DNA of 42,549 nucleotides. It comes from a virus. The translations under genes and the position numbers were made by a program. How positions within the stretch are numbered: the first letter of the stretch is position 1; each line of letters starts with the position of its first letter. A model generated the notes under the pieces. The model saw only the letters and a program-made list of their open reading frames with translations. It was not told where the DNA came from and did no database searches. The DNA lies in the IMG/VR virus record IMGVR_UViG_3300045988_103922. One strand, 5' to 3'. Below are positions 9,920 to 42,549 of the stretch, piece by piece.

Positions 9920-9925
9920 GGAAGA

Positions 9926-10843: not shown

Positions 10844-10847
10844 AAAG

Positions 10848-11896: not shown

Positions 11897-11919
11897 GGGA
11901 TAACCTCCTTTCGAAAATG

Positions 11920-11978: not shown

Positions 11979-11985
11979 GTATAAT
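11957..11985 (+). promoter_or_regulatory. Rightward early promoter (PR-like) with a perfect sigma-70 consensus
   Basis: TTGACA at 11957-11962, a 17-nt spacer, TATAAT at 11980-11985. Operator palindrome 2 lies in the spacer. Confidence 0.7.
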
Positions 11986-12016
11986 GTTTGCGAAAGTAAG
12001 AAACGGAGGTGACAGC

Positions 12017-15346: not shown

Positions 15347-15348
15347 AA

Positions 15349-16031: not shown

Positions 16032-16034
16032 ACC

Positions 16035-21083: not shown

Positions 21084-21110
21084 GCCCGGCGGTTTGTCCC
21101 GCCCGCGGCT
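21084..21110. repeat. Conserved leader/intergenic element, copy A
   Basis: GCCCGGCGGTTTGTCCCGCCCGCGGCT is nearly identical to 21485..21512 (one inserted C there). Each copy lies immediately upstream (minus sense) of an RBS GGAGAT(A). Confidence 0.85.
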
Positions 21111-25869: not shown

Positions 25870-26202
25870 ATGGTAGAGATCACAGTCAAGGTGAGCGAGG
25901 ACGGATTTGGGATCCGCTGCAAGGGACACGCCAGCGACAGCCGGGTATGCGCAGCGGTGAGCATGTTGGAACAGGCAGTGACCCAGGCGGCGTACTGGGA
26001 GGAGAGCTGCCTGGTGCGCTACGGCCCGGGCGTGATGGAGGAATTGAACGGTGAATTTTGGGCGAATGTGCGCTACGGAGACGAGACCGACCGCCGGAAG
26101 ATGGCGGGCATGGCGGCGGTGGCCGTGGCGGGATTTGAGCTTTTGCAGTACCGCTACCCGGACGAAGTGAGGGTAGTGAGGGTGCGAAGCACCGAGCCGT
26201 GA
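25870..26202 (+). CDS. Prp-like (DUF464) cysteine protease
   Basis: KGHASDSRVCAAVSMLEQA matches the GHA...VCAavS catalytic His/Cys signature of the ribosomal-processing protease Prp. It lies between portal and scaffold. Confidence 0.75.
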   Translation: MVEITVKVSEDGFGIRCKGHASDSRVCAAVSMLEQAVTQAAYWEESCLVRYGPGVMEELNGEFWANVRYGDETDRRKMAGMAAVAVAGFELLQYRYPDEVRVVRVRSTEP

Positions 26203-27372: not shown

Positions 27373-28695
27373 ATGGATATGATCTACAAGCAGTACATGA
27401 ACATGCTCCCGCTGAACCTGCGGGTGCATGACAACACCAACGTGACCACCGACGCGGGCCTGTCCGCCGAAATGAAGACGTATTACCATGATACGCTCAT
27501 CGACATGGCGGAGCCCAAGCTGGTGTATGACACCTTCGGCCAGAAGGTGCCAATCCCCAAGGGCAAGGGCAAGGTGGTGGAGTTCCGCAAGTTCGGCACC
27601 CTGCCCAAGGCGCTGACCCAGCTGGTGGAAGGCGTGACCCCCGTGGGCCGCAAGATGAACGTGAGCGTCATCACCAGCGAGGTGAAGCAGTTCGGTGACT
27701 ACATCGAGTACAGCGACATTCTGCAGATGACCACCATCGACCCCATCGTGGCCCAGGGCATGAAGATGCAGGGCGGCCAGGCGGGCCGCACCAGCGACAC
27801 CATCACCCGGGATATCCTGATGGCGGGCACCAACAAGATGTTCGTGCCCAGCGTGGTGAACGGCGTGGAAACGGAAGTGCTGGCCCGCGCGGACGTGAAG
27901 GCCGACAGCTGCGAGCTGACCGCCGATCAGGTGCTGCTGGGGCTGGGCCGCCTGAAGCGCATGAACGCCGAGCCTGCGGAGGACGGCGCGTATGTGTGCA
28001 TCATCCACAGCGACGTGGCGACGGACCTTGCCCGTAGCAAGGACTGGAAGGACTGGAACGCCTACACCAGCCCGGAGAAGCGCTTCCCCGGCGAGATCGG
28101 ACGCATCGGCGACGTGCGGTTTGTGCAGAGCACGGAAGCGAAGATCATCGGCCCCGGCTGGATCTTTGGAAATGAAAACAGCGGCGGCGTGTGCCGCCTG
28201 ACCCTGAAAACCGCCCTGACCAGCAGCGGCAGCACAGACATCGTGGTGAACGAGACCATCACGGCGGCCCAGGCCAAGGAGCTGACCGACCGCATCAGCG
28301 GCGGCGAGACCGTGAAGATCTACGTGGGCGGCAAGGAGGCCACCGTGGCCAGCGTGACCGCCGGTGCGGGCACGGGCAAGTTTGTGGTATCCGCCGCCGT
28401 GACCGACGTGGCCGCAGGCGCGACCGTGTGCGGCGTTGGCGCGGGCAAGGACGGCAGCGCCATCTACTGCAGCCTGCTGGTGGGCGCGAACGCCTACGGC
28501 GTGACCGAGCTTTCCGGCATGGGCCTGGAATACATCGTGAAGCAGCTGGGCAGTGCTGGCAGCGCCGACCCCCTGAACCAGCGTTCTACCACGGGCTGGA
28601 AGCTGACCAAGACCGCCGAGCGGCTGGTGGAGGAGTACATGATCCGCATCGAGCACAGCAGCCGGAGCTTCGGCAAGGTGGCTGTGAGCAACTGA
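27373..28695 (+). CDS. Major capsid protein (HK97 fold, N4-gp56-like family)
   Basis: It is 440 aa with the pattern KVVEFRKFGTLPKA...LVEGVTP...QFGDYIEYSD, and it follows the scaffold gene. Confidence 0.85.
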   Translation: MDMIYKQYMNMLPLNLRVHDNTNVTTDAGLSAEMKTYYHDTLIDMAEPKLVYDTFGQKVPIPKGKGKVVEFRKFGTLPKALTQLVEGVTPVGRKMNVSVITSEVKQFGDYIEYSDILQMTTIDPIVAQGMKMQGGQAGRTSDTITRDILMAGTNKMFVPSVVNGVETEVLARADVKADSCELTADQVLLGLGRLKRMNAEPAEDGAYVCIIHSDVATDLARSKDWKDWNAYTSPEKRFPGEIGRIGDVRFVQSTEAKIIGPGWIFGNENSGGVCRLTLKTALTSSGSTDIVVNETITAAQAKELTDRISGGETVKIYVGGKEATVASVTAGAGTGKFVVSAAVTDVAAGATVCGVGAGKDGSAIYCSLLVGANAYGVTELSGMGLEYIVKQLGSAGSADPLNQRSTTGWKLTKTAERLVEEYMIRIEHSSRSFGKVAVSN

Positions 28696-29591: not shown

Positions 29592-31325
29592 ATGGGGATC
29601 AACCTGCCCCAGATGGGGAGCGTGGCCCGAACGACCACGGGTGTGACCAGCTTTGCGGGCCTTGACCGATTGCTGAAATGCCAGGAGTACGAGTTCGCGG
29701 CTATGACCAACATGGAGACGAAACAGCTGCCGGTGATGAGCACGCGCCCGCCAAGGCGGCTGCTGCGGAAGCTGCAAAAGCCAAACATGCTGGCGGCCCA
29801 CGACAGGATGTGCTGGGTGGACGGGACAGACCTGTACTGCGGCGGGCGCGTGGTGGGACAGGTGAAGGACAGCCGGAAGACCTTTGTGCGCATGGGGGCG
29901 CAGCTGGTGATCTGGCCGGACAAGGTGCTCTACAACGTCAAGACGGACACGCTGGAAAGCCTGGAAAACAAAAAGGTGACCACGGGAACGGTGAACTTTA
30001 CCCTGTGCCGGGCGGACGGAACGCCATACGAGGGCTACGCCGTGGGCAAGACCGCGCCGGAAAGCCCGAACAACGGCGACCTGTGGATGGACACCAGCGA
30101 GGAAAAAGCGGCCCTGCGCCAGTACGACGCGAGCCTTGCCATGTGGGTGAGCATCCCCACGGTGTTTACGATGATCGCGGCGGCGGGCGTCGGGGAAGGA
30201 TTTAGCAAGTACGACGGCGTGACGGTGAGCGGCTGCACGGCGCTGCCGGAATTAAACGGAGAGTTTTTCCTGATGGGCGCACAGCAGGACGCGGTGATCG
30301 TGACGGCGCTGATAACGCAGGCCGGGAGCCAGACGGAGCCGGTGACGGTGCAGCGGAAGGTGCCTGACCTGGACTATGTGTGCGAGTGCAACAATCGGCT
30401 GTGGGGCGTGAAGAAAGACGTGCATGAAATTTACGCCTGCGCCCTGGGCGACCCGAAGAACTGGAACCAGTTCATGGGTCTAAGCAGCGACAGCTACGTG
30501 GTAAACGTGGGCAGCGCCGGGGACTTTACAGGCGCGGCGGCCCACATGGGAAGCGTGCTGATGTTCAAGGAGGATTGCGTTCACACGGTAATGGGCACGC
30601 TGCCCAGCAATTTTACCGTCAGCGTGATGCAGTGCCGGGGCGTGGAGGACGGCAGCGCCGGGAGCCTGAAGCGCATCAACGAGGTGCTGTACTACAAGAG
30701 CGAGGATCACGTGTGCGGCTATGGGAGCGCCCTGCCGTCCAGCGTGAGCCAGAAGCTGCCGGAGCTGGGCGGGAACGCTGTGGGCGGGCAGATCGGCGAC
30801 CGATACTACCTGTGCGTGGACGCGAAGGACGGCGGGCGGGAGCTTTTGTGCTACGACACACAGGCGGCGGCGTGGGTGCGGGAGGACGGGCTTAACGTAC
30901 AGTGGATGGCCACGCAGGACGGGAGACTGTACCTGCTGGCGGCGGACGGCAGCCTGTACTGCACGGAGCCGGGCGCGAACGAATACGACGGCGAAGGCGC
31001 GGCAGACGAAGAGGCCCAGCCCTATGAGCTGGTGACCGGCCCCATCGGGCTGGACGAACCCTATGCCAAGTACATCAGCCGGATCCAGCTGTACGGGGAG
31101 ACGGAGCCGGGAACCAGCCTGCGGGTGGAGATCCAGTACGACGAGCGGGGCGAGTGGGAGCGGGTGTACGACGGGATGCCCACCCCGCGCCAGAGCATGG
31201 TGCTGCCCTTCACCACCCGGCGCTGCCGGACGCTGCGGCTGCGGCTGAGCGGCGTGGGCGGGATGCGGCTGTACAGCATCATCAAAAACGTGGAAACGGG
31301 GAGCGATCACTATGCAGCTAGGTGA
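29592..31325 (+). CDS. Large tail structural protein, beta-rich and possibly propeller-like
   Basis: It is 577 aa with repeated beta-strand/turn segments (DGRLYLLAADGSLYC and similar). It lies in the structural operon. Confidence 0.6.
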   Translation: MGINLPQMGSVARTTTGVTSFAGLDRLLKCQEYEFAAMTNMETKQLPVMSTRPPRRLLRKLQKPNMLAAHDRMCWVDGTDLYCGGRVVGQVKDSRKTFVRMGAQLVIWPDKVLYNVKTDTLESLENKKVTTGTVNFTLCRADGTPYEGYAVGKTAPESPNNGDLWMDTSEEKAALRQYDASLAMWVSIPTVFTMIAAAGVGEGFSKYDGVTVSGCTALPELNGEFFLMGAQQDAVIVTALITQAGSQTEPVTVQRKVPDLDYVCECNNRLWGVKKDVHEIYACALGDPKNWNQFMGLSSDSYVVNVGSAGDFTGAAAHMGSVLMFKEDCVHTVMGTLPSNFTVSVMQCRGVEDGSAGSLKRINEVLYYKSEDHVCGYGSALPSSVSQKLPELGGNAVGGQIGDRYYLCVDAKDGGRELLCYDTQAAAWVREDGLNVQWMATQDGRLYLLAADGSLYCTEPGANEYDGEGAADEEAQPYELVTGPIGLDEPYAKYISRIQLYGETEPGTSLRVEIQYDERGEWERVYDGMPTPRQSMVLPFTTRRCRTLRLRLSGVGGMRLYSIIKNVETGSDHYAAR

Positions 31326-32151: not shown

Positions 32152-33156
32152 ATGGCGGTAACAGTGAAGAAGCAGGAACTGCAGGAGGGAACGCCCCTGC
32201 AGCAGGCGGCCAGCGCGGCGTGGAAGCGAACCACGCCCACGGCCAACGCGGGGCAGATCACCCAGAGCTACTACACGGGAAAAACGAACAAGAGCAACTA
32301 CGAGCAGGGGCAGCCCAACTATGTGCAGAGCGACGCGGTGAAGAAGGCGGCGGAGGATCTGGCCAACGCGGAGCAGCAGAAGCCGGGGCCGTTCCAGAGC
32401 AACTACGGGGACAAGATCCAGGGGCTGCTGGACACCATCCTGAACCGGGGAAAGTTTACGTATGACTTTAACGCGGATCCCATCTACCAGCAGTACGCTC
32501 AGCGGTATCAGGAGCAGGGGCAGCAGGCCATGAAGGACACCATGGCCCAGGCGGCGGCGCTGACCGGCGGCTACGGCAGCACCTACGGGCAGAGCGTGGG
32601 CCAGCAGACCTACCAGCAGTATCTGCAGCAACTGAACGACAAGATCCCAGAGCTGCGGCAGGCGGCGTACCAGCAGTATCAGGACGAGGGGCAGACCCTG
32701 CGGGACAACCTGGGCATGCTGCAGGGGCAGGATGACCGGGACTACAACCGCTACCGCGACGACGTGAGCGACTACCAGACGGAGCTGAGCTATTTCTATA
32801 ACAAGTTCAGCGATATGAGCCAGCAGGAATACCAGCGCTACCAGAACGACCTGGCGGCGTGGCAGAAGGACAGGGACTACTGGTACAACAAGTGGCTGGC
32901 GGAGGAAGAGCTGGCGCTGAAGAAGGGAAGCGGCGGAGGCGGCGGCGGAGGAAGACGGAGCAGCAAGACGGAACAATACGTGCTGCAAAGTACGACCTGG
33001 CAGGGCGCAGCCAAGGAATTAAAAAGACTTGAGAAGCAGGGCATCCTGACCCCGGAACAGGCGGCGGAGATCGCGAAGACACAGATCCCGAAGCTGAAGA
33101 AGGGGACCACCCCCACCACAAAGACCGACAAGGGCTACACGGGAGCGACGAGGTAA
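32152..33156 (+). CDS. Q/Y-rich virion protein, possibly internal
   Basis: It is 334 aa with YQQY/QQYLQQ repeats and a GSGGGGGGGRR linker. It lies directly upstream of the giant gene. Confidence 0.55.
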   Translation: MAVTVKKQELQEGTPLQQAASAAWKRTTPTANAGQITQSYYTGKTNKSNYEQGQPNYVQSDAVKKAAEDLANAEQQKPGPFQSNYGDKIQGLLDTILNRGKFTYDFNADPIYQQYAQRYQEQGQQAMKDTMAQAAALTGGYGSTYGQSVGQQTYQQYLQQLNDKIPELRQAAYQQYQDEGQTLRDNLGMLQGQDDRDYNRYRDDVSDYQTELSYFYNKFSDMSQQEYQRYQNDLAAWQKDRDYWYNKWLAEEELALKKGSGGGGGGGRRSSKTEQYVLQSTTWQGAAKELKRLEKQGILTPEQAAEIAKTQIPKLKKGTTPTTKTDKGYTGATR

Positions 33157-33162: not shown

Positions 33163-36100
33163 ATGGCGAAGAAAAAGAAGACCACCAGTCAGAAGAACTA
33201 CAGCGCCCAGGACTACCTGAACATGGCCCGGGACGCGGAGAAGAAGACCCAGCGGGAAACGGAACTGCGGGAGAGCCGGACGGCAACGGACTACCTGAAC
33301 ATGGCCCGGCAGGCCCAGGGGGAGCAGCCCATCCCGAAGCGGAAGAAAGAAGACGATCAGGAAAAGGGAAACGCCGGGGAAAAGCTGAACCGGGCGGCGC
33401 TGCTCATGAGCCGGATACCGGGAGCGGGCGACCTGAAGCGGCAGGAGTTGAACCGCACGGCCAGAGCCCTGCAGCAGGCGGCAGCCCGGAGCTACAAAAG
33501 CGACGGGAAGAATTGGAGCCTTGCGGGCACGGGCAGCGTATTTGACCCCATCGGCACAACGGCGAAGCGGCGGGAATTTGAGAGCGGACTGGACACGGAG
33601 CTTTTGCAGAGCAATCTGAACCGGCTGACGGAGCAGGAGAAGCGGGAGCAGAGCGCCCAGAAGGAGCAGAACGCCAAGAAGAACGCCAGCAGCCTGCACC
33701 AGCGGACGCAGCCCAAGGAATGGATGATGCCCGTGAAGCGGGAGTTCGGCAGCCGGGTGGGCAGCGGCGTGGAGACCTTCGGCGGAGGCGGCGGGAAGAT
33801 CGACGCGCAGAAAGAGCCTGAGACGGCCCGGGAAGCCATGTTGGGGGAAAGTCTGACCGACAGGAAGGCCCGGGTGCAGAACGCCCTGTACGAGGCCGCC
33901 AGCGCGGCGGACAGGGCGCAGCGCTCCGCCTTTGACCGTAAGGGGGCACAGGAGCGGCTTGCGGAGATCGCCGGGCTGAAGCAGACGGACGAGCAGCAGC
34001 GCGAGGCGGACTACCTGGACATGGCCGAGGGAGACGATACGGCATGGCTCAGCCCGGAGGAGATGCAGACGCTGAAGGAAAAGAACGGCACCTACGGCGA
34101 GAAGTACGCGCAGGAGGAGCGGGCGCTGAACCGGGGCCTGAACCGCAGCGAGCGGTACGTGTACGAAAACGCCATGAACACAGACAGCAGCTTTGACCGG
34201 CTGGCGGAGGAAGGCCGCGCCATGGACACGCGGATGAAGAACGCGGAGGACGTGCTGGCCTATCCCCACGACGCGAAGGCGGCGGCAGAGGCGGAGAAGC
34301 TGGTGAAGTACACCACGGACGCGGAAAGAAAGACGTACTACTACACCCTGCGAACCAAGGGGCAGGAGGCGGCGGACGCCTATCTGGACGCGCTGGACGC
34401 AGACCTGAACCGGCGGAGGGGCGAGGCCCAGCTGGAAGCCACCCGGCAGACGGTGAACAGCGGAGCGCTGGGAGCCATCGGAGCCAACGCATACAGCGTG
34501 CTGAGCAGCGTGGGCGAAACGCCCGCGTATATCTCCAACCTGATCCAGTTCCTGCGGGGGCAGGACATCGACCCGTACAGCCCGGAGAACATGGTGAGCC
34601 GGGTGAACGAGGAGATCCGCAGCCAGACCACGCAGAATATTGAAAACGGCGCGCCGGGATTCCTCGGCAAGGCGCTGGGCTTTGGCTACGGCGTGGGCAT
34701 GGACTTGGCCCGGAGCCGGTACAACATGATGCTGGGCCTGGGCATGGGCGGGAACAGCAAGATCGGCAAATGGACCAGCTCCGCCCTGATGGGCACCAGC
34801 GCGGCCCAGAGCGCCCTGACGGACGCACTGGACAGGGGCGCCACGGACGAACAGGCCACGGCGACCAGCATCTTCAGCGGTATCTGGGAGACGCTGTTTG
34901 AAGAGATGAGTTTGGAGCGGCTGCTGGATCTGAAAAGCCCGAAAACCGTGCGGCAGTTTTTGACAAACACGCTGCTGCAGAGCGCCACGGAGGGCAGCGA
35001 GGAGCTGTTTACCGAAATGGCGAACACGCTGACGGACGAGCTGATCATGAAGGACCTGAGCAACTACCGGCTGAACAAGAAAGCCTACGAGGCCAGCGGC
35101 CTGACGGAGGAAGAAGCCCGCAGGAACGCCATGGCGGACGTGGCCAAGAATTGGGGCATGGCGGCGCTGGGCGGCTTTGCCTCCGGCGCTGTGGGCGCGG
35201 GCGTGCATCAGGGGATCGCTTACGGGCAGAACCGCAGGAACGAACGATTCCAGAATGCGATCAGTGCCTATGAAAAAGGCCGCCAGCAGCAGACGACCCC
35301 TCAGACGGTGGAGGAAGCGGCCAGCGCGGCGGCACAGAATGACAGATTAAATAATTCTGAACAAAATATTACAAAAACGCAACAAATGAACGAAGAGACG
35401 AACGGCGCGGCCCGGCAGACGGCGGCGCGGGACGGCTCTGTTCCGGCTGCCTACGAAGGCGGAGGAACAAGCGAAAACGTGGAGATCGACCAGCAAAGCC
35501 CGGTGAGCCGGGTGGAGAAGGGAACGGTCTACCTGCGCACGGCGGACGGCAGCGACGTGCGGGCCAGCGACGTGACCTTCGGCGACGAGCGGGACAACCT
35601 GCTGGCGGCGGAAGGCGTGGGCCGCATGAGTCCGGCGGGGATCACCGGGATGCTGAACCACTATGACGGCACGAAGGCCACGGCGAAGGAATACGCCAGC
35701 GCCTATCTGTCGGTGTACAACCGCGCCCGGGCGGGCATGACGGTGCAGCAGGCGGTATACGACAGTGCGCAGACCCGCAGCGCCCTGACGGAGGAAGCGG
35801 CCATGGCGGCCTACGCGGCGGGCGAGAAGATGAACATGGGGCGCATCGTGCCCATGACCCGGGCGGAGAAGCAGCGGCAGCAGGCGCAGCTGGATCTGGT
35901 GAGCGCCATCAACGAGAAATTTTCCAAGAGCGGCGTGAAGATCGAGATGGTAGACCGCATCGAGGGATACGGCGGGCAGGAGGCCAACGGGCGCTGGGAC
36001 AGCGAGACCAACACCATCTACGTGAGCAAAAACGCGGACGACCATGCATATGCATACATTGCCATGCATGAACTGACCCATGCCATGAAAAGCCGGAATG

Positions 36101-39100
36101 CCAGCGAATTTGAGGAATTCGGCGACTGGGTGGTGTACTACCTGAACGAAAGCGGCCAGGACGCGGACGCGCTGGTGCGCGGGGAGATGATCGCCCAGGC
36201 GCAGGCCATGGGGCTGATGGAGCGGCAGAAGGCGAACCTGACCACCGAGGAACAGCTGAAGCTGCTGGACGGCCTGAGCGAGGAACAGTACAAACAGCTG
36301 AACGAGCTGGCACAGGAGGAGCTGATCTGCAACACGGTGCCCAGCATACTGCAGAACGAGAACGTGCTGATGGACCTGTACCACACGAAGCCCACGCTGT
36401 TTGAGCGGATCAAGAACTTCCTGAAGGAGTTCATCGACGCGGTGCGCGGCACGGGCAGGGAGCTTGGGAAGACCCGGGCCTTCCAGCAGATGGAGGCCAT
36501 GGGAAAGAACCAGGCGGCGCTGGAAGACATCTACAACCGCATGGTGCAGATGGCGGAGAACGGGGAACAGCAGCGGCAGGCGGAAGAGACGAAGTTCAGC
36601 CAGAAGGAAACGGATCACTACGACTACAGCACGCCGTTTATCCAGCAGGTGGACGATCTGCTGGAAGGAAAGATACCGAAAAACGACGCGCTGGTGATCG
36701 GCGGAACGCCGGACGTGCTGAAAAACATCGGCTTCAGCAATCTGCCGATGACCATCAACACGGAGCATATCAAAAACATGAACCGCGATACGGAGCATGT
36801 ATTGAGCAGGGCGTTTATGGAGCAGCTGCCGGAGCTGATCAAGGATCCGCTGGCGGTGATCGAATCGAAGACGAGCCCGGAAAGCAGCACGGTGATGCTG
36901 CTGAACGCCGTGGTGAACGGAAAGCCGTATATTGCGCCGGTATATATAACAACGACAAGTATGCAAAATGGATTAAAAATAGACAGCAACAACATTGCCA
37001 CGGTATTCCGAAAAGGAAACGCCATCACCAAGCTGCTGACGGACGCGCTAGAAAAAGAAAACGCCGGTAAGACCGGCGTGTACTACTGGAAAAAGAAAGA
37101 GGCTCGTGACCTGTTCGAGAGCGCCGGGGTCCAATTCCCCGGAGGTTCTATGCAGGACGGCCTCATCCATAGTATATTAAAAAATGATTCCCCTGTCAAC
37201 AGGAAATTTGTGGAGCAGACTGAAACGAAGCAGTTTAAGCGCTGGTTTGGGGACAGCAAGGTGGTGGACAGGGACGGCGAGCCGCTGGTGGTGTACCATG
37301 CCACGGATGCGGAATTTACTGTGTTTGACCGTGACAAATTGGGGAAAAGAACAAAGGAACGGGATATAGAAGATTTTAACAGGAACATGGAAGACAGCGT
37401 TGGACTTTTGAGAAGCGCAGAGCTGGGCTTCTGGTTTAGCGAAAAAAATCTGGCAGAAGATGAATACGGAGGACGGGATGTACTGAAATTAGAAGATGGT
37501 AAAAGAATAGGGATGCCTGTGTATCTGAGCATTGAAAACCCGAATTACGTTGATACCTATGACCTGATGGAAACGCTCGATAACATGACCGTGGAAGAAT
37601 ATCTGCAGGAGATGGAAGACTATGGATATGACGGCCTGATCGTAACAGATCAGGAGTTTGACAATGCGACGAGCTACGTTGTCTTTAAGCCGAACCAGAT
37701 CAAGAGCGCAACGGATAATGTGGGAACGTTCGACTATTTCAATCCGGACATCCGCTACAGCCTGAAGGAAACGGACGAGAACGTGCGAAAGCAGGTAGAC
37801 CTGACCCGGGAGCTGATGGAGGAGACCGGCGGCTACCGGCTGACGCAGGCGGACGCGGAGCGGGTGATGAAGCGGGTGGCGAAGGAATTTGGCAGCCAGA
37901 CGGACGCAAGCGAACTGGCGGCGGACTTCGCCCGGGTGATGGAATACGCAAGGCAGCAGAACGCGGACATGGATCAGGTGGACAACGAGCTTTTGAGCAT
38001 TGCGGACAAGATGATCGCCAACAGCCAGCAGCTGGACGAGGAGCACGAGGAGGAAGTGAAGCCCATCCGGGAGAAACTGCGGAAGACGGCCATCAGCCTG
38101 ACGGACAGCCAGAAGGCGGAGGCGGCCAGCATGACCGGCAGCCTGGGCGCGTACCGAAAGGCTCTGTTCGGGCAGGTGAGGCTGAGCCAGCAAAGCGGCG
38201 TGAGCCTGGACAGCGTGTGGAGCGAGCTGAGCAACCTTTCCCCCACCCTGTTCCCGGCGGACACGGCGGAGGGCGATATGCCACGGCTGCTGATGGAGGC
38301 GGCGGACGCGGTGAAGCCAATCATCGAAAATCAGTACGGGCTGGACAGCGAGGAAGCGGCCCAGTACGCCGTGATGCAAATGGTGGACCAGTACATGAAG
38401 CTGCCGGGCGTGCAGACGGCGGCGAAAAATCAGAAGCGGATGGGACTGACCGCCAGCCAGTACCGGGAGCTGATGGACGCATTCCTTCAGAAGAGCGAGA
38501 AGCAGTTCCAGAGCGCTTGGGTAAAAACGTGGATGCAGAAGGAAAAGGCAATCGGCGCTCAAAAGGAGCAGGAGGCCCGGGCGAAGTATCAGGAATGGAA
38601 AAGAAAACAAATACAGCGAAATCAGGAATGGAGAAAAGAAGAACTGCAAAGCGAAAAAAACTGGAAACAGGAAAAGCGGCAAGAAATGTCGCTATGGAGG
38701 CAGGAACAGAGGAGCGCCATGCAGGAAAGCGCCAAAGAATGGAAACAGGAAAAGCGGCAAGAAATGTCGCTATGGAGGCAGGAGCAGCGGAACGCCATGC
38801 AGGAGAAATACCGGCAGTGGCGGCAGACGGACACGGAGACCCGGAAGAACCGGGAAGCGGTGAACACCTACCGCGACCGGCTGGAACGCACCACCCGGAC
38901 GCTGCTGAACTGGATGGAAAAGCCCAACAAGACCCAGCATGTGCCCATGGAACTGCAGAGCGACGTGCAGAAGGTGCTGGCGGGGCTGGACTTCAGCGGG
39001 AAGACCACGCTGGCGGCCAAGGATCTGGGCAGCCGGATCGAGGCCATGACAAACCGGATCGCAAACTTGCAGGAGAAGACCGACGAGAACGGAGCCAGCA

Positions 39101-42100
39101 GCCAGACCTTCTACCTGGAACGCGACCAGCAGATGCTGGACGAGCTGCACCATCTGGCGGCGGTGATCGGCGCGAACAACGGGAACGTGTACGAGCTGAG
39201 CGCGGCGGAGCTGCGAGACCTGAACAAGTGGATGAACGCGGTGAAGCACGTGATCACCGACGTAAACAAGAACCACGCCAAATACTATCAGGGGAAGTAC
39301 TACCGGGGCGAGAGCCAGTACGGCACCATCGAGGAAGTGGCGGACAGCACCAAGGCGGAGCTGCACCGGAAGAAAGCCTACGCGGACAAGAAGGGCGTGA
39401 CCCGGGCATGGAACGAGATGCTGGGCAAGGGCATGGTGGACTGCTTCAGCTTCTTTGACAAAATGGGAAGCGCGGGCGGAGAAGTGTTTGGCAACCTGCG
39501 GAAGGGATTTGACAAGCACATCCGCAATGTGAGCGCGGCCAAGAGCTACACCGAAAGCCTGCTGAAGGGCGTGGATCAGAAGACACTGCGGCAGTGGACG
39601 GACGAAAAGAAGCGCACGGAGTACAAGACCGACCGGGGCGAGACCATCCGCCTGAACACGGCGGAGGTGATGGAGCTGTACGTGCTGAATAAACGCGAGC
39701 AGGCCCAGAGCCACCTGTACGGGCAGGGCATCCGCACCAACGAGAAGGTGGAGCCGGTGATGCTGACCCGAGGGGACGTGCAGAACATCACGGGGACGCT
39801 GACGAAGGAGCAGAAGCAGATCGCCGACAGGATGCAAAAGTTCCTGGCCAAGGACTGCGCCGCCTGGGGCAACGAGGCCAGCCGGGTACTGGTGGGCTAT
39901 GACAAATTCGGCGAGGAACACTACTGGCCCATCCGCACCGACCCCAACAGCAACCGCACCCTGAACGCGGACGGCAGCGCGGCCAACCTGAGCTACATCA
40001 AAAACCAGAGCTTCACAAAGGAACTGACCGAAAAAGCCCAGAACGCCATCATGGTGGAAAGCATTTTCGGGACGTACACGCGGCACATCAGCCAGATGAG
40101 CGCGTACAACGCCTACGCGGTAGCCATGACGGACCTGCAGCGGTGGTTTAACACACCGGGGGTGAAGACGGAGATCGAGCGGGCCTACGGCAGCAACGGC
40201 GTGCGGTACATTACCGACCTGATGAAGCAGATCAACGGCACGGCAGACAACGGAAAGACCTTCGGCGGAGTGCCGAAACTCGTCAGCCATGCGAAAGCCG
40301 CTGCTGTAGGCGCGAACTTGAGCGTGGCCATCCAGCAGCCCACGGCCTATGTGCGGGCGGCGGACATGATCAGCCCGAAGTATCTGCGCGATGGGCTGTT
40401 CCAGAAAAGCGACCCGGAACTGGTGAAGAAGTGGTGCCCCATTGCGGAATGGAAAAGCTGGGGATTCTACGAAACGGACGTGGGCCGGGGGCTGAACGAT
40501 CTGATCGTAGACCAGAGCAACGCGCTGGAGAGGGCCACGGAGAAGAGCATGATCCTGGCGGAGAAGGGCGACAAATGGACCTGGGGAAAGCTGTGGAACG
40601 CGGTGGCGGCGGAGACCCGCGACCTGTACGCGGGCGAACTGGAACCGGGAACGGACGCCTTCTATGAAAAGGTGGGCCAGCGGCTGAGCGAGATCATCGA
40701 CAAGACGCAGGTGGTGGACAGCGTGTTCCACCGAAGCCCCATCATGCGCGACCGGGGATACAGCTCCATTTTTACCAGCTTCATGTCGGAATCCATCAAG
40801 ACCTACAACATGGTGGAGCGGGCCATTGCGAACTTTGCGGAGAACCGGAAGGATCCGGCGGCCAAGCGGCGGCTGATGCGCACCATGGCGGTGTACGTGG
40901 TCAACGCGCTGGCAGGAGCCATGGCAAAGAGCATCCCTGCGGCGGCCAGAGACGACGATAAGGAGAAGAACTACTGGGAGAAATATCTGGAAGCGCTGGT
41001 TGAAAACGGCAAGGAAAACCTTCTGTTTACCAACAATATTCCGATGATCAAGGACTGGCTGGCGGTCCTGAACGGCGAAGAGACCAAACGATTGGAATAT
41101 CAGAGCATTGAACGGCTTGCGTCTCTTTTGGCTGAAATGGATAAAGTACGTACAGGAAAAGGAAGCAAGTGGAGCGGATTCAAATGGTTCTACCGAATTG
41201 CTCAAAGCGCCAGCGACATCACCGGCGTACCGGCGTATGCGGCCATCCGGGACGCGAAGGCCATTGTGCAGACGGTGGGCAGCGCCATTGGGCAGGACTG
41301 GTACATCCCCATGGAGAACGAGACGGCCAGCTTCAGTTACGCGGCGGAAAACCTGTACGAGGCCATCCGCAAGGGCGACAGCACAGCGGAAACGCGGCTG
41401 AGGGAAAAGCTGGGCGCAACGAAAAGCCCGGCTCAGATCGACGCGGCGGTGGCAAACGTGCTGATGCAGCAGGACAGCCGGGTGGCGGAGGCGGCGGCGC
41501 TGAAGCTGCAGGGCAAGGCCACGGAGCTGAACCAGAAGAAGCAGGAGATGGTGGCGGACGGGTTTACGGCGGAAATGGTGGACAAGGCCGTGAACCGCTA
41601 CATCACCGAAGGCCAGGCCGAGAAGGAAAAAGACCTGACCAAGGAGCTGAAAGCCAACCTGTGGAGCAAGGATGAGGCCGTGACGGCCCTGCGGACGGCG
41701 GCGGGCCTGATGGAAGGAAGCGCCACGGCGGACGACGTGAAGGCCATCGTGAGCGAGCTGGTGGCGGACAGCACGGCCAAGGATCCGGCCAAAACGGTGA
41801 AGAGCGGCATCGTGAGCGAGGTGAAGAAGGACTATGTGAGCCTGATGGAGGAAGGCAAGACCACGGAGGCCAAGGGGCTGCTGCGTGTGCTGCAGGACAC
41901 GCTGGGCGTGACGGACGCGGACGCCAAGGGCTGGGTGACGGAAGGCCACCAGGAGAGCCTGCGGACGGCGGCGGAGGCTATGGACGTGCGGGCGCTGAAG
42001 GCGGCCATGACGAAGCTCAAGAAGGACGGCAAGACCGACCAGAGCATGAAGAGCAGCATTGAGGGCGTACTGAAGAAGCAGTACCTGGCTGCGAAGGAGG

Positions 42101-42216
42101 CGGGCGACCGGGGACAGATGGAGAAGATCATCCGTTTCCTGACGGGGCTGGACCTGAAGAACGCCAAAGGCGAAAAGTACTTCACGCGGAAGAAGATTCA
42201 GGCGTGGGGCGAGTAA
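33163..42216 (+). CDS. Giant (3017-aa) polyvalent virion protein, likely packaged and injected
   Basis: A single uninterrupted ORF with RBS GAGGT. It contains Gly-zipper hydrophobic segments, an HExxH zincin, a MuF-C-like domain, an ART-PolyVal-like domain, coiled coils and a long alpha-helical C-terminal half. Confidence 0.85.
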   Translation: MAKKKKTTSQKNYSAQDYLNMARDAEKKTQRETELRESRTATDYLNMARQAQGEQPIPKRKKEDDQEKGNAGEKLNRAALLMSRIPGAGDLKRQELNRTARALQQAAARSYKSDGKNWSLAGTGSVFDPIGTTAKRREFESGLDTELLQSNLNRLTEQEKREQSAQKEQNAKKNASSLHQRTQPKEWMMPVKREFGSRVGSGVETFGGGGGKIDAQKEPETAREAMLGESLTDRKARVQNALYEAASAADRAQRSAFDRKGAQERLAEIAGLKQTDEQQREADYLDMAEGDDTAWLSPEEMQTLKEKNGTYGEKYAQEERALNRGLNRSERYVYENAMNTDSSFDRLAEEGRAMDTRMKNAEDVLAYPHDAKAAAEAEKLVKYTTDAERKTYYYTLRTKGQEAADAYLDALDADLNRRRGEAQLEATRQTVNSGALGAIGANAYSVLSSVGETPAYISNLIQFLRGQDIDPYSPENMVSRVNEEIRSQTTQNIENGAPGFLGKALGFGYGVGMDLARSRYNMMLGLGMGGNSKIGKWTSSALMGTSAAQSALTDALDRGATDEQATATSIFSGIWETLFEEMSLERLLDLKSPKTVRQFLTNTLLQSATEGSEELFTEMANTLTDELIMKDLSNYRLNKKAYEASGLTEEEARRNAMADVAKNWGMAALGGFASGAVGAGVHQGIAYGQNRRNERFQNAISAYEKGRQQQTTPQTVEEAASAAAQNDRLNNSEQNITKTQQMNEETNGAARQTAARDGSVPAAYEGGGTSENVEIDQQSPVSRVEKGTVYLRTADGSDVRASDVTFGDERDNLLAAEGVGRMSPAGITGMLNHYDGTKATAKEYASAYLSVYNRARAGMTVQQAVYDSAQTRSALTEEAAMAAYAAGEKMNMGRIVPMTRAEKQRQQAQLDLVSAINEKFSKSGVKIEMVDRIEGYGGQEANGRWDSETNTIYVSKNADDHAYAYIAMHELTHAMKSRNASEFEEFGDWVVYYLNESGQDADALVRGEMIAQAQAMGLMERQKANLTTEEQLKLLDGLSEEQYKQLNELAQEELICNTVPSILQNENVLMDLYHTKPTLFERIKNFLKEFIDAVRGTGRELGKTRAFQQMEAMGKNQAALEDIYNRMVQMAENGEQQRQAEETKFSQKETDHYDYSTPFIQQVDDLLEGKIPKNDALVIGGTPDVLKNIGFSNLPMTINTEHIKNMNRDTEHVLSRAFMEQLPELIKDPLAVIESKTSPESSTVMLLNAVVNGKPYIAPVYITTTSMQNGLKIDSNNIATVFRKGNAITKLLTDALEKENAGKTGVYYWKKKEARDLFESAGVQFPGGSMQDGLIHSILKNDSPVNRKFVEQTETKQFKRWFGDSKVVDRDGEPLVVYHATDAEFTVFDRDKLGKRTKERDIEDFNRNMEDSVGLLRSAELGFWFSEKNLAEDEYGGRDVLKLEDGKRIGMPVYLSIENPNYVDTYDLMETLDNMTVEEYLQEMEDYGYDGLIVTDQEFDNATSYVVFKPNQIKSATDNVGTFDYFNPDIRYSLKETDENVRKQVDLTRELMEETGGYRLTQADAERVMKRVAKEFGSQTDASELAADFARVMEYARQQNADMDQVDNELLSIADKMIANSQQLDEEHEEEVKPIREKLRKTAISLTDSQKAEAASMTGSLGAYRKALFGQVRLSQQSGVSLDSVWSELSNLSPTLFPADTAEGDMPRLLMEAADAVKPIIENQYGLDSEEAAQYAVMQMVDQYMKLPGVQTAAKNQKRMGLTASQYRELMDAFLQKSEKQFQSAWVKTWMQKEKAIGAQKEQEARAKYQEWKRKQIQRNQEWRKEELQSEKNWKQEKRQEMSLWRQEQRSAMQESAKEWKQEKRQEMSLWRQEQRNAMQEKYRQWRQTDTETRKNREAVNTYRDRLERTTRTLLNWMEKPNKTQHVPMELQSDVQKVLAGLDFSGKTTLAAKDLGSRIEAMTNRIANLQEKTDENGASSQTFYLERDQQMLDELHHLAAVIGANNGNVYELSAAELRDLNKWMNAVKHVITDVNKNHAKYYQGKYYRGESQYGTIEEVADSTKAELHRKKAYADKKGVTRAWNEMLGKGMVDCFSFFDKMGSAGGEVFGNLRKGFDKHIRNVSAAKSYTESLLKGVDQKTLRQWTDEKKRTEYKTDRGETIRLNTAEVMELYVLNKREQAQSHLYGQGIRTNEKVEPVMLTRGDVQNITGTLTKEQKQIADRMQKFLAKDCAAWGNEASRVLVGYDKFGEEHYWPIRTDPNSNRTLNADGSAANLSYIKNQSFTKELTEKAQNAIMVESIFGTYTRHISQMSAYNAYAVAMTDLQRWFNTPGVKTEIERAYGSNGVRYITDLMKQINGTADNGKTFGGVPKLVSHAKAAAVGANLSVAIQQPTAYVRAADMISPKYLRDGLFQKSDPELVKKWCPIAEWKSWGFYETDVGRGLNDLIVDQSNALERATEKSMILAEKGDKWTWGKLWNAVAAETRDLYAGELEPGTDAFYEKVGQRLSEIIDKTQVVDSVFHRSPIMRDRGYSSIFTSFMSESIKTYNMVERAIANFAENRKDPAAKRRLMRTMAVYVVNALAGAMAKSIPAAARDDDKEKNYWEKYLEALVENGKENLLFTNNIPMIKDWLAVLNGEETKRLEYQSIERLASLLAEMDKVRTGKGSKWSGFKWFYRIAQSASDITGVPAYAAIRDAKAIVQTVGSAIGQDWYIPMENETASFSYAAENLYEAIRKGDSTAETRLREKLGATKSPAQIDAAVANVLMQQDSRVAEAAALKLQGKATELNQKKQEMVADGFTAEMVDKAVNRYITEGQAEKEKDLTKELKANLWSKDEAVTALRTAAGLMEGSATADDVKAIVSELVADSTAKDPAKTVKSGIVSEVKKDYVSLMEEGKTTEAKGLLRVLQDTLGVTDADAKGWVTEGHQESLRTAAEAMDVRALKAAMTKLKKDGKTDQSMKSSIEGVLKKQYLAAKEAGDRGQMEKIIRFLTGLDLKNAKGEKYFTRKKIQAWGE
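34456..35225 (+). other. Glycine-zipper / hydrophobic region of the giant protein (about aa 432-687)
   Basis: Segments include GALGAIGANAYSVLSSVG, GFLGKALGFGYGVGMDLA, MMLGLGMGGNSKIG and GMAALGGFASGAVGAGV. Confidence 0.6.
35800..36250 (+). other. Zincin-like metallopeptidase module (MPTase-PolyVal-like)
   Basis: HELTH lies at 36067-36081 (aa 969-973), preceded by NGRWDSETNTIYVSKNADDHAYAYIAM. Confidence 0.55.
36618..37150 (+). other. MuF-C-terminal-like alpha/beta domain of polyvalent proteins
   Basis: LVIGGTPDVLKNIGFSNLPMTINTEHIKN...HVLSRAFMEQLPELIKDPLAVIES...VMLLNAVVNGKPYIAPVYI matches my recollection of the MuF_C pattern. Confidence 0.4.
37228..37770 (+). other. ART-PolyVal-like ADP-ribosyltransferase module
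   Basis: KQFKRWFGDSKVVDRDGEPLVVYHATDAEFTVFD...GFWFSE...PVYLSIENP...GYDGLIV...YVVFKPNQIKSATDNVGTFDYFNPDIRYS closely follows the recurrent ART-PolyVal sequence pattern. Confidence 0.65.
38662..38817 (+). repeat. 78-bp (26-aa) tandem duplication in the giant gene
   Basis: WKQEKRQEMSLWRQEQR(S/N)AMQE occurs twice. The first 44 nt of each copy are identical. Confidence 0.9.
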
Positions 42217-42223: not shown

Positions 42224-42252
42224 GGGGGCGGCAGAAATGCCGTCCCCTTTTT
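42224..42252 (+). terminator. Rho-independent terminator after the giant gene
   Basis: Stem GGGGGCGGCA/TGCCGTCCCC (one G-T pair) with a GAAA loop is followed by T5. Confidence 0.7.
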
Positions 42253-42320
42253 GCGGGGAGAAATGGGACGGCGGAAATGGTAGCATGAGGCAGAGAAAGC
42301 GGGAGAGAGGGGCGGCTGAA

Positions 42321-42549
42321 ATGCTGGAAGTGAAGGGGCAGAACATCCTGCTGACCCGGGGAGACACGGCGGCGCTGACGCTGACGCTGGAAGGCGACTA
42401 TGTGCCGGACGGAACGGAAATGAAATTTACCATAAAGAAAGCGCCGACGGACAGCCGGGCGCTGGTGATGAAAACCGTGGAGACCGAAAGCAACCGGGCC
42501 GTGCTGGCACTGGAACCGGGCGACACGCAGCAGCTGCAGCCGGGGCAGT
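42321..42549 (+). CDS. N-terminal part of the junction-spanning small virion protein; it continues at 142..248
   Basis: ATG with upstream GAGAGAGGGG, downstream of the terminator, and in frame with ORF 12..248 through the terminal repeat. Confidence 0.6.
   Translation, partial: MLEVKGQNILLTRGDTAALTLTLEGDYVPDGTEMKFTIKKAPTDSRALVMKTVETESNRAVLALEPGDTQQLQPGQ
42409..42549. repeat. Terminal direct repeat, copy 2
   Basis: It is identical to 1..141. Confidence 0.95.

Follow-up and report, generated by a model that had tools for sequence, protein, structure and literature searches.

A 3017-residue polyvalent-type protein with an exchangeable internal cassette, encoded among the structural genes of a temperate phage

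The window analyzed here, a stretch of viral DNA of 42,549 nt, carries an exact 141-bp repeat shared by its two ends, and the genome is therefore circular with a length of 42,408 bp. The genes are arranged in the order of TerS, TerL, a P22-like portal, Prp, a scaffold candidate, the capsid, proteins of 120, 167, 577, 274, and 334 aa, and a giant ORF, and are followed on the 3′ side of the giant gene by fibre-like genes and an NlpC/P60 lysin past the circular junction. A tyrosine integrase is encoded at 8768–9919 on the minus strand and relatives are found in bacterial genomes, in keeping with the temperate lifestyle that the first-pass annotation had assigned. The features around the giant gene are as follows.

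29592–31325, plus strand: conserved partner of 577 aa, a tail or nozzle candidate, matching phrog_511 (labelled “internal virion protein”)
32152–33156, plus strand: Q-rich conserved partner of 334 aa encoded just ahead of the giant gene, found in 45 of 80 genome loci
33149–33152, plus strand: Shine-Dalgarno sequence GAGG, 10 nt 5′ of the giant-ORF ATG, as seen in the sequence
33163–42216, plus strand: giant ORF of 3017 aa, with an identical protein (P0001) in a public collection
42224–42257, plus strand: terminator-like hairpin (10-bp stem with 8 G-C pairs) with TTTTT, beginning 8 nt past the stop codon

The 9-kb ORF is a genuine gene. It starts with ATG and runs uninterrupted through 3017 codons to its stop, with GC3 of 0.82 against GC2 of 0.39, and the chance of an open frame of this length is about e^-98 when the stop-codon frequency is taken as about 0.032 at 60% GC. 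Its product (338.7 kDa, pI 5.6) has more than 120 homologues of 2700–3800 aa in addition to the identical protein, and the ORF takes up 21.3% of the circular genome, as the first reading of the sequence had it (21 percent). The stop codon of the preceding gene is located at 33154–33156, only 7 nt ahead of the ATG, and this closeness suggests that the giant gene is translationally coupled to the gene upstream. The hairpin behind the gene is the strongest of the listed sites, while the total number of such sites in the region is not above that in shuffled sequences.

In 41 of the 80 genome loci, the giant gene is preceded by a homologue of the 577-aa protein, a putative nozzle; PDB sequence searches with the 577-aa and 167-aa neighbours gave no match. 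The homologue of the 334-aa partner in one relative, L006, carries PG_binding_1. A megablast search with the genome's right half over 50,697 phage records yielded a single match of 446 bp.

The giant gene had been proposed to stand at the place of ejection proteins. Indeed, it occupies the slot of the T7 internal virion proteins: in T7 as well, the genes for gp13–16 follow those for portal, scaffold, capsid, and tail tube and precede the one for the fibre. T7 gp14, gp15, and gp16 are stacked on the portal, are ejected, and build a conduit across the envelope. Like the giant protein, the T7 internal proteins are large and helical, and gp16 has an enzymatic domain. They differ in that three or four proteins stand in place of a single chain of 3017 aa, whose effectors are directed to the cytoplasm and whose host is likely Gram-positive. 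Comparison of the giant protein with gp14, gp15, and gp16 gave 5.4 bits as the best score, most scores being negative, and no match of PDB folds.

For the virion type, 31 of the larger ORFs including the giant one were scanned against PHROGs, and 11 of them, all within or beside the structural operon, were scanned against Pfam too. Families of tape-measure, tail-tube, sheath, and chaperone proteins found no match in these ORFs, and thus the absence of tail-tube, chaperone, and tape-measure genes noted at first sight was borne out at this scope. This result bears on the idea that the virion is long-tailed with highly divergent tail genes and that the giant protein belongs to the tail, as a tape measure or another structural component. 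Some tape-measure proteins resemble it in being long, helical, and Gly-rich and in enclosing a peptidase, its gene lies between head and fibre genes, and many neighbour genes have no annotation. But the portal is of the P22 type, 3017 residues at about 1.5 Å each would give a tail of about 450 nm, and the C-terminal core of the protein (see below) is compact, conserved, and globular, not a low-complexity ruler. There is also a comparable case in Enterocloster (Clostridium) clostridioformis LM41, whose temperate prophages phi1 and phi4 of ~41 kb contain an 8-kb ORF of about 20% of the genome; the prophages are predicted podoviruses, and cultures of the strain release mostly podovirus-like particles by TEM (PMC11318856). 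From the missing tail-gene matches and the portal type, identity as a tape measure was rejected, and we regard it as very improbable.

The giant protein itself is composed of the following parts.

33163–33642, plus strand: basic leader, aa 1–160, K/E/Q-rich and poorly conserved, pI 9.8, with a repeated DYLNMAR motif
33640–35802, plus strand: N module, aa 160–880, conserved and helical, without Pfam family, AF2 model of low confidence
35800–36582, plus strand: zincin-type metallopeptidase domain, aa 880–1140, from invariant residues and AF2 topology
36067–36081, plus strand: HELTH motif, aa 969–973, the sole HExxH of the protein
36319–36321, plus strand: E1053, putative third zinc ligand, invariant in homologues
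36580–37197, plus strand: swappable segment holding MuF_C, aa ~1143–1345, GC 51.8%
36778–37044, plus strand: MuF_C (PF18819), aa 1206–1294, a PBECR-type, BECR-fold RNase-like domain, from Pfam
37267–37731, plus strand: ART-PolyVal (PF18760), aa 1369–1523, from Pfam, segment GC 47.4%
37795–38472, plus strand: acidic helical linker, aa 1545–1770, retained by roughly half the distant homologues
38470–41292, plus strand: C-terminal core, aa 1770–2710, conserved, all-alpha, and basic (pI 9.2, 108 kDa)
38648–38804, plus strand: tandem duplication, 78 bp × 2, giving a 26-aa repeat
41290–42213, plus strand: C-terminal tail, aa 2710–3017, variable and helical

The N module was detected in 112 of the 129 representatives of at least 2000 aa. 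It contains Gly/Ala-rich segments of the GxxxG type at aa 433–450, 496–530, and 660–685, so that the glycine-zipper character initially described for aa 432–687 stands, while the strong hydrophobicity does not: hydropathy peaks stay below 0.9 (Kyte-Doolittle, 19-residue). Because of these low peaks the segments are not classical membrane helices, and such an assignment is unsupported. In the AF2 model of aa 150–1150, the part corresponding to the N module was unusable (pLDDT 51).

The following domain is better defined. All 27 diverse homologues compared, with identity to the query down to 18%, keep H969, E970, H973, and E1053 unchanged, and this invariance indicates that the zincin is real, as had been proposed from the HELTH motif; the HExxH with the downstream Glu is a conserved zincin signature, gluzincin-type as judged from sequence. 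The domain was detected in 106 of the same 129 representatives. AlphaFold modelling, which had been suggested as a check and was run on parts of the protein, gave a zincin-like topology here, consisting of a helix, three strands, the HExxH helix, and the Glu helix with pLDDT of 70–88, and an almost purely helical C core. The top PDB matches of the zincin model by Foldseek were anthrax LF, IrrE/PprI, and PPEP-1, all of them zincins, with a best E of only 0.1. In Pfam, DUF6782 (E = 5e-4) and Peptidase_M78 (E = 0.039) matched the segment below threshold, and in PHROGs the metallo-protease phrog_87 matched with E = 0.0027. The family named beforehand, MPTase-PolyVal (PF18818), had no match at E ≤ 1 with the whole protein or at E ≤ 10 with aa 880–1140, and this assignment was discarded. 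Cleavage of the giant protein by the Prp-like protease of the phage was also rejected: the L27-like leader motif LxLNL[RG][VI]HD is confined to the scaffold and capsid proteins, where it is N-terminal, and is absent from the giant protein.

Downstream of the zincin, two more domains of the first-pass annotation were recovered by Pfam profiles. The MuF-C-like domain, placed at about aa 1153–1329, corresponds to PF18819 at aa 1206–1294 with E = 5e-11 and scores of 43.1 bits (whole protein) and 47.0 bits (segment) above the gathering threshold of 27.6. In Mu gp30, the copy of this domain is inactive while its orthologues are active (Iyer et al., 2017; PMC5512222), and by analogy the MuF_C/PBECR domain of the giant protein may be catalytically dead. 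The ART-PolyVal module, placed at aa 1356–1536, is matched by PF18760 at 77.1 bits (gathering threshold 31.2, E = 3e-21) over the full profile (1–140 of 140). As for its active site, H/Y/E-equivalent residues had been expected; the candidate triad is better read as H1379-Y1454-D1490, residues kept in 73%, 86%, and 95% of 100 unique ART domains of the family, respectively, which would place it in the H-Y-D clade. In this configuration the residues belong to strands 1, 2, and 5, as in the Tox-ART-HYD2 clade (Iyer et al., 2017; PMC5512222).

These modules form a variable cassette at aa ~1140–1545, in which modules are exchanged between near-identical relatives. The ART is present in just 30 of the 129 representatives, and the cassette types among relatives are MuF_C+ART, LPD3+ART, PBECR5+MuF_C+ART, two ARTs, and ART alone. 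Flanks of cassette-swapped relatives are about 86–97% identical (94–97% in those examined closely), with break points at aa ~1142–1155 and ~1342–1355. GC content of the cassette is 47–52% (GC3 0.59–0.70) versus 59–65% (GC3 0.82–0.89) in the rest of the gene. In contrast to the cassettes, the neighbouring genes are constant, being 123, 577, 274, 334, GIANT, 111/139, 178, and 348 in aa, and since they are the same with every cassette, no cassette-linked immunity ORF is visible; an immunity gene tied to the cassette was thus rejected.

Such swapping of ART and nuclease-type modules among close relatives in a temperate phage is reminiscent of MuF toxins, which occur in temperate phages only and in many cases bear ART, nuclease, or metallopeptidase domains, and for which loading into the head and delivery together with DNA have been hypothesized (Jamet et al., BMC Biol 2017; PMC5576092). 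The giant protein might accordingly be a phage-borne polymorphic toxin for bacterial competition or lysogen advantage, with an immunity protein protecting the lysogen. But no Pfam match to the N-terminal Phage_Mu_F domain was found in it, the toxic-type modules are central and not C-terminal, the conserved chassis, which makes up 75% of the chain, has no relation to toxin trafficking domains, and the giant protein is about 5–10 times larger than MuF toxins. With the constant neighbours in addition, we consider this quite unlikely.

No part of the giant protein is more conserved or more widespread than the C core of about 930 aa. All of 44 distant homologues retain aa ~1800–2700, and the core is found in 3472 protein clusters (50% identity), nearly all of which are prophage proteins of 2000–4500 aa from Clostridia. 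Hence the C-terminal half described at first as coiled-coil and helical and impossible to assign is helical and has no Pfam match, as stated, but is not idiosyncratic. The roughly 1500 residues of this half are helical without a Pfam match even at E ≤ 10; for the C core, single-sequence and profile searches found no Pfam family and no PDB sequence, and Foldseek of its model against PDB gave nothing significant. Among 12 sequences with 31–44% identity, about 59 positions of the core are invariant, including W and many charged or polar residues (R, H, K, D, E, N, and Q), and the motifs QQPT, TQVVD, and FxxE.

Invariant charged residues would fit an unknown enzyme as well as a conduit. The protein would then still be a packaged polyvalent protein, but its essential function would be catalytic, the core being a new enzyme with nucleic acid or cell wall as its substrate, for instance, and carried into the cell by the phage. 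The basic nature of the core agrees with this, and several unassigned LPD domains have been judged enzymatic on the same grounds (Iyer et al., 2017; PMC5512222). However, besides the lack of matches to families, sequences, and folds, the giant protein shows no motifs of polymerases, helicases, or nucleases, and the core model is nearly all helix with no recognizable catalytic fold. An enzymatic core is therefore unlikely in our estimation.

A more specific proposal is a virion-packaged RNA polymerase of the N4 gp50 or crAss-like gp66 type fused to effectors. The size and genomic position resemble those of N4 vRNAP gp50 (3500 aa), also a giant encoded at the end of the structural operon, one match (cr85_1) is annotated as “RNA-polymerase subunit”, and ART-PolyVal is fused to virion RNA polymerases in some phages (Iyer et al., 2017; PMC5512222). 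Nevertheless, DxDGD and T7-type motifs are absent, there is no match to N4 gp50 and no polymerase match by Pfam, PDB sequence, or fold, and the model has almost no beta structure for a palm or double-psi barrel. This possibility was rejected and is effectively refuted. What remains in common with N4 is the domain type: the zincin MPTase domain of gp50 is required for its encapsidation (Iyer et al., 2017; PMC5512222). Packaging and injection, established traits of gp50, would be shared by the giant protein on the reading preferred below.

The combination of domains had been regarded as unusual, but hundreds of near relatives exist, one of them is already named “PolyVal ADP-Ribosyltransferase” in NR, and 8-kb ORFs that are probably related were in print in 2024 (PMC11318856). 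The giant protein thus joins a large family that is held in databases and as yet uncharacterized, and its kind is known from the description of polyvalent proteins, a concept introduced together with a proposed processing role of the MPTase (Iyer, Burroughs, Anand, de Souza & Aravind, J Bacteriol 2017; PMC5512222). Those are multi-domain giants amid virion genes with a zincin hub, H-Y-D ART, and MuF-C/PBECR domains, whose architecture is shuffled between orthologues and which are predicted to be delivered with DNA. The same traits are seen here: at least two unrelated effector or enzyme domains in one chain (zincin, MuF_C/PBECR, and ART-PolyVal), a virion-gene setting of a phage (terminase, portal, capsid, and fibre genes, with integrase), and module shuffling among orthologues with at least five cassette types and aberrant cassette GC. 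Domains and gene context therefore agree with the initial view of a polyvalent effector-like protein encoded within the structural operon, the phage being temperate and of the short-tail type. Unlike the proteins of Iyer et al., three-quarters of the giant protein (N module, linker, C core, and tail) matches no LPD or other Pfam model derived from that work, its zincin misses PF18818, and the constant chassis, not the effectors, defines the family.

Close prophages were absent from 185,579 species genomes by single-sequence scan, and a profile scan of the same genomes found only relatives of at most 38% identity (40% on two short fragments). Because only such distant relatives were obtained, the host is narrowed to probably Clostridia. 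Enterocloster genomes carry the C core, the ORF in E. lavalensis being 2674 aa. The 8-kb ORFs of LM41, which were noted in the original report without dissection, have LPD3-type similarity as do the close relatives P0018 and P0029, and they are probably related to the giant ORF. There is also a split case: in the relative L006, the protein is divided among four abutting genes of 247, 788, 744 (ART), and 1112 (core) aa, supporting separable units in the giant protein.

Giant proteins of other phages provide further comparisons. In the Stx phage phi24B, gp47 (vb_24B_48; 2807–2811 aa) contains MuF-C and LPD domains. Proteomics detected it in abundance in purified virions, while it is invisible in the cryo-EM map, and a role in ejection has been proposed for it (preprint 10.64898/2026.04.10.717836). 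phi24B is a temperate podovirus, and aa 1695–1869 of its giant, in MuF-C, are 30% identical to aa 1138–1326 of the giant protein. By hmmsearch, both the N module and the C core are missing from it, and LPD5, LPD1, and LPD38 are present instead; furthermore, its host is Gram-negative and its gene is at the genome end, not between nozzle and fibre genes. The cultured Pseudomonas phage F116 encodes the giants p60 (1649 aa) and p59 (2129 aa). The ART-PolyVal of p60, a protein with two HExxH motifs, is 37% identical to that of the giant protein, while p60 and p59 have no N module or C core and differ in architecture and host. No sequence homology of the chassis was detected with T7 gp13–16, N4 gp50/51/53/54, the phi24B giant, or F116 p59/p60, and homology to known internal or ejection proteins was rejected for it, the shared parts being only MuF_C (phi24B) and ART (F116).

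Taken together, we consider it probable that the giant protein is a phage polyvalent protein made of a constant chassis and an exchangeable payload, which is packaged in the capsid and co-injected with DNA as an ejection and effector protein. The chassis would comprise the N module (aa 160–880), the zincin (aa 880–1140), and the C core with the tail (aa 1770–3017), and the payload at aa ~1140–1545 the predicted MuF-C/PBECR RNase-like domain and H-Y-D-type ADP-ribosyltransferase. Beyond what is read directly from domain identities, conservation, cassette exchange, gene position, and phage context, packaging and co-injection are most likely by analogy. The ejection role rests on position and analogy, since the chassis has neither detectable sequence homology to the known ejection proteins compared nor a PDB fold match. 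It counts against the preferred reading that the Gly-rich segments are too weakly hydrophobic for obvious membrane helices.

On this chassis-and-payload reading, the protein would be synthesized late, with its translation coupled to that of the head and neck genes, and a few copies would enter the procapsid at or above the portal. It would exit the capsid via the short tail before or with the DNA, and the helical chassis might aid passage of DNA over the thick Gram-positive wall and membrane, or pilot or protect the DNA end. The zincin would cleave the polyprotein into units, or it could be an effector itself instead of a self-processing protease. The freed ART and RNase-like modules would then modify host proteins or RNAs, by which defence would be blunted or early infection and lysogeny biased. 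More tentatively, and with doubt outweighing confidence, the constant part may represent an undescribed, self-contained DNA/protein-delivery chassis of short-tailed phages of Clostridia, replacing the T7 gp14–16 or P22 gp7/16/20 type, with an internal docking site at aa ~1140–1545 where recombination would exchange the enzymatic payloads and from which the protein's own protease would free them.

The family bears on how DNA of short-tailed phages crosses the thick wall of Gram-positive gut anaerobes and on what is co-injected. It is abundant among Clostridia of the human and animal gut (including Oscillospiraceae, Lachnospiraceae, and Enterocloster), with one protein taking one-fifth of the genome, and natural variants differing only in the internal payload cassette make a clean system for protein co-injection. 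It is also a system for counter-defence by ADP-ribosylation or RNase-type enzymes, and offers a large conserved module that is structurally uncharted. If the chassis-and-payload reading is true, the cassette site could be used to deliver chosen proteins into gut bacteria that are hard to transform, and if the constant part is indeed a delivery chassis, it would be a natural modular platform for protein injection into Gram-positive gut bacteria.

As a minor observation, the 26-aa repeat produced by the tandem duplication, K-x-WKQEKRQEMSLWRQEQR-x-AMQE, is part of a long coiled helix running on into the C core.

The giant open reading frame runs in a single frame on the + strand from an ATG at 33163 to a stop at 42214–42216 and encodes 3017 residues. 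The chance of a 3017-codon open frame at the base composition of the window is about e^-98, and the codon-position GC (GC3 0.82 versus GC2 0.39 in a genome of 60% GC) is as expected for a genuine gene. A GAGG Shine-Dalgarno sequence is found 10 nt, and the stop of the preceding gene 7 nt, 5′ of the ATG, and the public protein collection contains an exact copy of the protein together with over 120 homologues of 2700–3800 aa, mostly from 40–44-kb contigs. Positions 1–141 and 42409–42549 are an exact 141-bp direct repeat; the window is therefore a genome assembled as a circle of 42,408 bp, of which the ORF occupies 21.3%. Thus, ORF calls, codon GC, Shine-Dalgarno sequence and homologues agree that the uninterrupted 3017-aa ORF, taken in the first-pass annotation to fill 21% of the genome, is real. 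The gene 3′ of it (111–139 aa in relatives) is broken by the window ends. The strongest terminator-like hairpin of the region, followed by a T-run (42224–42257), begins 8 nt past the stop and suggests that a transcription unit from the head genes to the giant ORF may end or be attenuated ahead of the fibre genes.

Judged from its sequence, the giant protein is a polyvalent protein of the phage type. Its modules, in residue numbers, are as follows.

1–160: leader, basic (pI 9.8), poorly conserved
160–880: N module, helical, conserved
880–1140: predicted zincin-type metallopeptidase (invariant residues, AlphaFold2, Foldseek, sub-threshold Pfam)
~1140–1345: swappable segment with MuF_C, the latter at 1206–1294
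1345–1545: segment with ART-PolyVal at 1369–1523
1545–1770: linker, acidic, helical
1770–2710: C core, basic, conserved
2710–3017: tail, helical, variable

The ART-PolyVal module (PF18760) and the MuF-C-like domain (PF18819), both proposed earlier by eye, are recovered by Pfam in the whole protein with E = 3e-21 (77 bits, cut-off 31.2) and E = 5e-11 (43 bits, cut-off 27.6), respectively. Outside these two and the HExxH segment, ten overlapping segments gave no Pfam match at E ≤ 10. Iyer et al. (PMC5512222) place the ART of polyvalent proteins, an H-Y-D enzyme, in the Tox-ART-HYD2 clade. Among 100 unique ART domains of the family, H1379, Y1454 and D1490 are conserved in 73, 86 and 95%, respectively; the giant protein has all three, and this complete set argues that its predicted ART domain is probably active. 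MuF-C is classified as a PBECR (barnase/EndoU/colicin-E5/RelE-fold) RNase-like domain, and that of Mu gp30 itself is inactive (Iyer et al., PMC5512222).

The zincin assignment was made from HELTH, the sole HExxH of the protein. Aligning 27 homologues, some with as little as 18% identity to the query, shows H969, E970, H973 and E1053 to be invariant. AlphaFold2 modeling of residues 150–1150 was poor overall (pLDDT 51), and the N-module model is unreliable; residues ~770–1090 reached pLDDT 70–88 and form a helix, a three-stranded sheet, the HExxH helix and an E1053-bearing helix, the element order that Iyer et al. (PMC5512222) give for the zincin core. In a Foldseek search of this region against the PDB, the best 19 matches are all zincins, namely anthrax lethal factor, IrrE/PprI, PPEP-1/Zmp1 and an ImmA-like regulator; their E values, at best 0.1, are not significant. 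The HExxH segment has sub-threshold Pfam matches to DUF6782, “putative metallopeptidase” (E = 5e-4), and Peptidase_M78/IrrE (E = 0.039). The assignment of 880–1140 as a putative zincin therefore stands on its invariant residues and modeled topology, while membership in PF18818 does not, as the ten segments gave no match to that family at E ≤ 10. The glycine-zipper hydrophobic segments claimed earlier for 432–687 are present as Gly/Ala-rich stretches (433–450, 496–530 and 660–685), but their hydropathy peaks below 0.9 and they are no obvious membrane helices.

The C core is the most widespread part. A phmmer search with residues 1760–2720 against 1.84 billion cluster representatives returned 3472 proteins at E ≤ 0.001 (2694 at E ≤ 1e-30), and nearly all of the 150 matches listed place the core in the last third of a 2000–4500-aa protein. 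When single genomes of each prokaryotic species were scanned with a profile, 91 relatives came up, nearly all of them in Clostridia (Oscillospiraceae, Lachnospiraceae, Ruminococcaceae, Christensenellales, Enterocloster, Flavonifractor, Gemmiger), the best being 36–38% identical over the core. Among the carriers are the cultured Enterocloster lavalensis KCTC 15153, Flavonifractor sp. An100, Alitiscatomonas aceti, Gallibacter intestinalis DSM 108706 and Clostridium sp. AM22-11AC. At these genome loci, 55 of the 59 complete ORFs are 2146–3873 aa long; that of Enterocloster lavalensis has 2674 aa. A few contigs with the core (L030, L037, L074 and L081) are binned as Bacteroides, Thermoguttaceae, Desulfovibrio or “archaeon” genomes, one of them (L037) under an isolate label instead of as a metagenome bin; because nearly all other matches are Clostridia, misbinning or contamination is a likelier explanation than a true host.

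AlphaFold2 modeling of the core from 27 sequences (pLDDT 68, pTM 0.65; 70–93 across most of ~2060–2610, with several low-confidence stretches) gave an almost wholly helical structure headed by a long coiled helix. Within the long helix ahead of the core, a tandem duplication of 78 bp × 2 (window 38648–38804, 91% match) encodes a repeated 26-aa unit rich in W, K, Q, E and R. The model has no fold match in the PDB (best E 0.03, TM about 0.1), the profile matches no PDB sequence, and in PHROGs the core falls in families of unknown function alone (phrog_22978 and phrog_28077). In BFVD, 80 models match it at E ≤ 0.001, with a TM of about 0.5 across some 900 columns; those listed are nearly all second or third chunks of uncultured-phage giant proteins, under names such as “MuF C-terminal domain-containing,” “Nuclease,” “PolyVal ADP-ribosyltransferase” and “Large polyvalent protein associated domain.” The core (108 kDa) is basic, with pI 9.2, while the other modules are acidic, and about 59 positions, many of them charged, are invariant in sequences just 31–44% identical. 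Either a delivery module (oligomeric or binding nucleic acid) or an enzyme would be compatible with these features; with no PDB fold matched, we consider the enzyme unlikely.

What varies lies in the middle. BLASTP of the giant protein against 120 listed homologues defined two constant blocks (1–~1145 and ~1345–3017), which in the close relatives examined share about 86–97% identity. Between the blocks, the giant protein has MuF_C and ART, and relatives have an extra ART copy, LPD3 with ART, PBECR5 nuclease with MuF_C and ART, or ART alone; ADPrib_exo_Tox or DUF3990 occurs in more distant homologues. The MuF_C segment has 51.8% GC (GC3 0.70) and the ART segment 47.4% (GC3 0.59; window 36580–37797), against 59–65% (GC3 0.82–0.89) in all other segments of the ORF, and this drop indicates that the cassette is compositionally foreign and was recently imported. 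In 44 homologues of less than 50% identity, residues ~1800–2700 are kept in all 44, most retain ~400–880, about half the zincin and few the cassette. By family profiles, 112 of 129 cluster representatives of at least 2000 aa have the N module, 106 the zincin and only 30 ART. This retention pattern argues for a conserved function in N module, zincin and C core, and ART and MuF_C are, from such comparisons, optional cargo. The result is a constant chassis (N module, zincin, and C core with tail) with a payload exchanged by recombination. Close relatives have the same neighbor genes regardless of cassette type, and no cassette-linked immunity gene is visible beside the giant gene in those compared. 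That the giant protein is a polymorphic toxin, a reading on which both the exchangeable effectors and this result bear, seems quite improbable.

Furthermore, in a related temperate phage (L006, 4652–13339) the parts are encoded by four abutting genes for 247, 788, 744 (ART and linker) and 1112 (core and tail) aa, preceded by homologues of the 577- and 334-aa proteins encoded upstream of the giant gene. The parts can hence function as polypeptides of their own, and such separability would fit proteolytic release from the fused protein.

The genes around the giant ORF are listed below by window position or order.

8768–9919, minus strand: tyrosine integrase
also present: XRE-type repressor-like ORF, rolling-circle-type replication initiator, DNA methyltransferase
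upstream of the giant ORF, in order: TerS, TerL, P22-type portal (PF16510)
25870–26202: Prp-like cysteine protease, between portal and scaffold genes
26363–27247: scaffold candidate, N-terminus with L27-leader-like motif LFLVNLGIHD
27373–28695: major capsid protein, N-terminus with L27-leader-like motif LPLNLRVHD
then: two small proteins
29592–31325: 577-aa protein
then: 274-aa protein
32152–33156: 334-aa Q-rich protein
downstream of the giant ORF, past the circular junction: fibre-like, Ig-like and glycine-rich proteins

The scanned ORFs matched no tape-measure, tail-tube, sheath or chaperone family. With the integrase and the head-gene order, this bears out the earlier reading of a temperate phage whose giant gene sits in a structural operon lacking long-tail genes, and makes it very improbable that a protein in this tape-measure-like position is a tape measure. 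The leader-like motif is absent from all other proteins checked, which suggests that the scaffold candidate and major capsid protein may both undergo Prp-type N-terminal trimming, known in some Firmicute phages. Near the repressor-like region, a 119-aa ORF (21110–21469, minus strand) consists of two near-identical halves of ~50 aa (…VQVGSNYASDNGSTVKREALRMARQEAKKPENDGLEVRIAVCSTDDDYC… twice).

The 577- and 334-aa genes accompany the giant gene in distantly related prophages of Clostridia, with homologues just 5′ of it in 41 and 45 of 80 genome loci, respectively, many of the other loci being truncated. Neither protein has a match in Pfam or PDB sequence searches; the PHROG label of the former is “internal virion protein,” and the L006 homologue of the latter bears a PG_binding_1 domain, hinting that the 334-aa neighbor may act at the cell wall. 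The downstream fibre-like genes are not conserved; in relatives, the next genes after them encode a chitin-binding-type domain protein and an NlpC/P60 lysin. The giant gene thus belongs to the virion operon of a temperate phage with a P22-type portal and is co-inherited with two neighbors.

The gene order of the present phage matches that of T7 (portal, scaffold, capsid, tail tubular A and B, internal virion proteins gp13–16, fibre), and it resembles N4, where the structural operon ends with a virion RNA polymerase of 3500 aa. Family profiles of the giant protein found no chassis homology to T7 gp13–16, N4 gp50/51/53/54, the phi24B giant or F116 p59/p60; phi24B shares only MuF_C and F116 only ART. 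A virion RNA polymerase, for which the N4-like position would speak, is hardly credible for the giant protein. Probably, it serves instead for capsid-loaded, DNA-co-injected and self-cleaving delivery of effectors, a mechanism we infer from the polyvalent-protein concept and the processing role proposed for the MPTase of such proteins (PMC5512222), from positional analogy with T7 and N4, and from the precedent of phi24B gp47, a 2811-aa protein with MuF-C that is abundant in purified virions and missing from the cryo-EM map (10.64898/2026.04.10.717836). The protein would be made late, loaded into the procapsid near the portal, and exit via the short tail ahead of the DNA or together with it. 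The helical chassis would help to cross wall and membrane or pilot the DNA, the zincin would cleave the polyprotein, and the ART and RNase-like units would hit host targets, countering defence or steering early infection.

In NR, the close homologue P0029 already bears the name [quoted passage not shown], and the published 8-kb ORFs of phi1 and phi4 of C. clostridioforme LM41 (PMC11318856) very probably belong to the same family. New here are the apparent dispensability of the effectors, a three-part chassis that defines a very large Clostridia-centred family, and a C core for which current resources hold no profile, structure or function; the family is a good experimental entry point rather than a new kind of system. 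As a minor observation, two low-GC islands (9000–12000 and 15000–17000; 49–53% versus 60–64%) lie in the lysogeny/early region around the integrase and the DNA methyltransferase (16035–16694) and may be moron or defence cargo.
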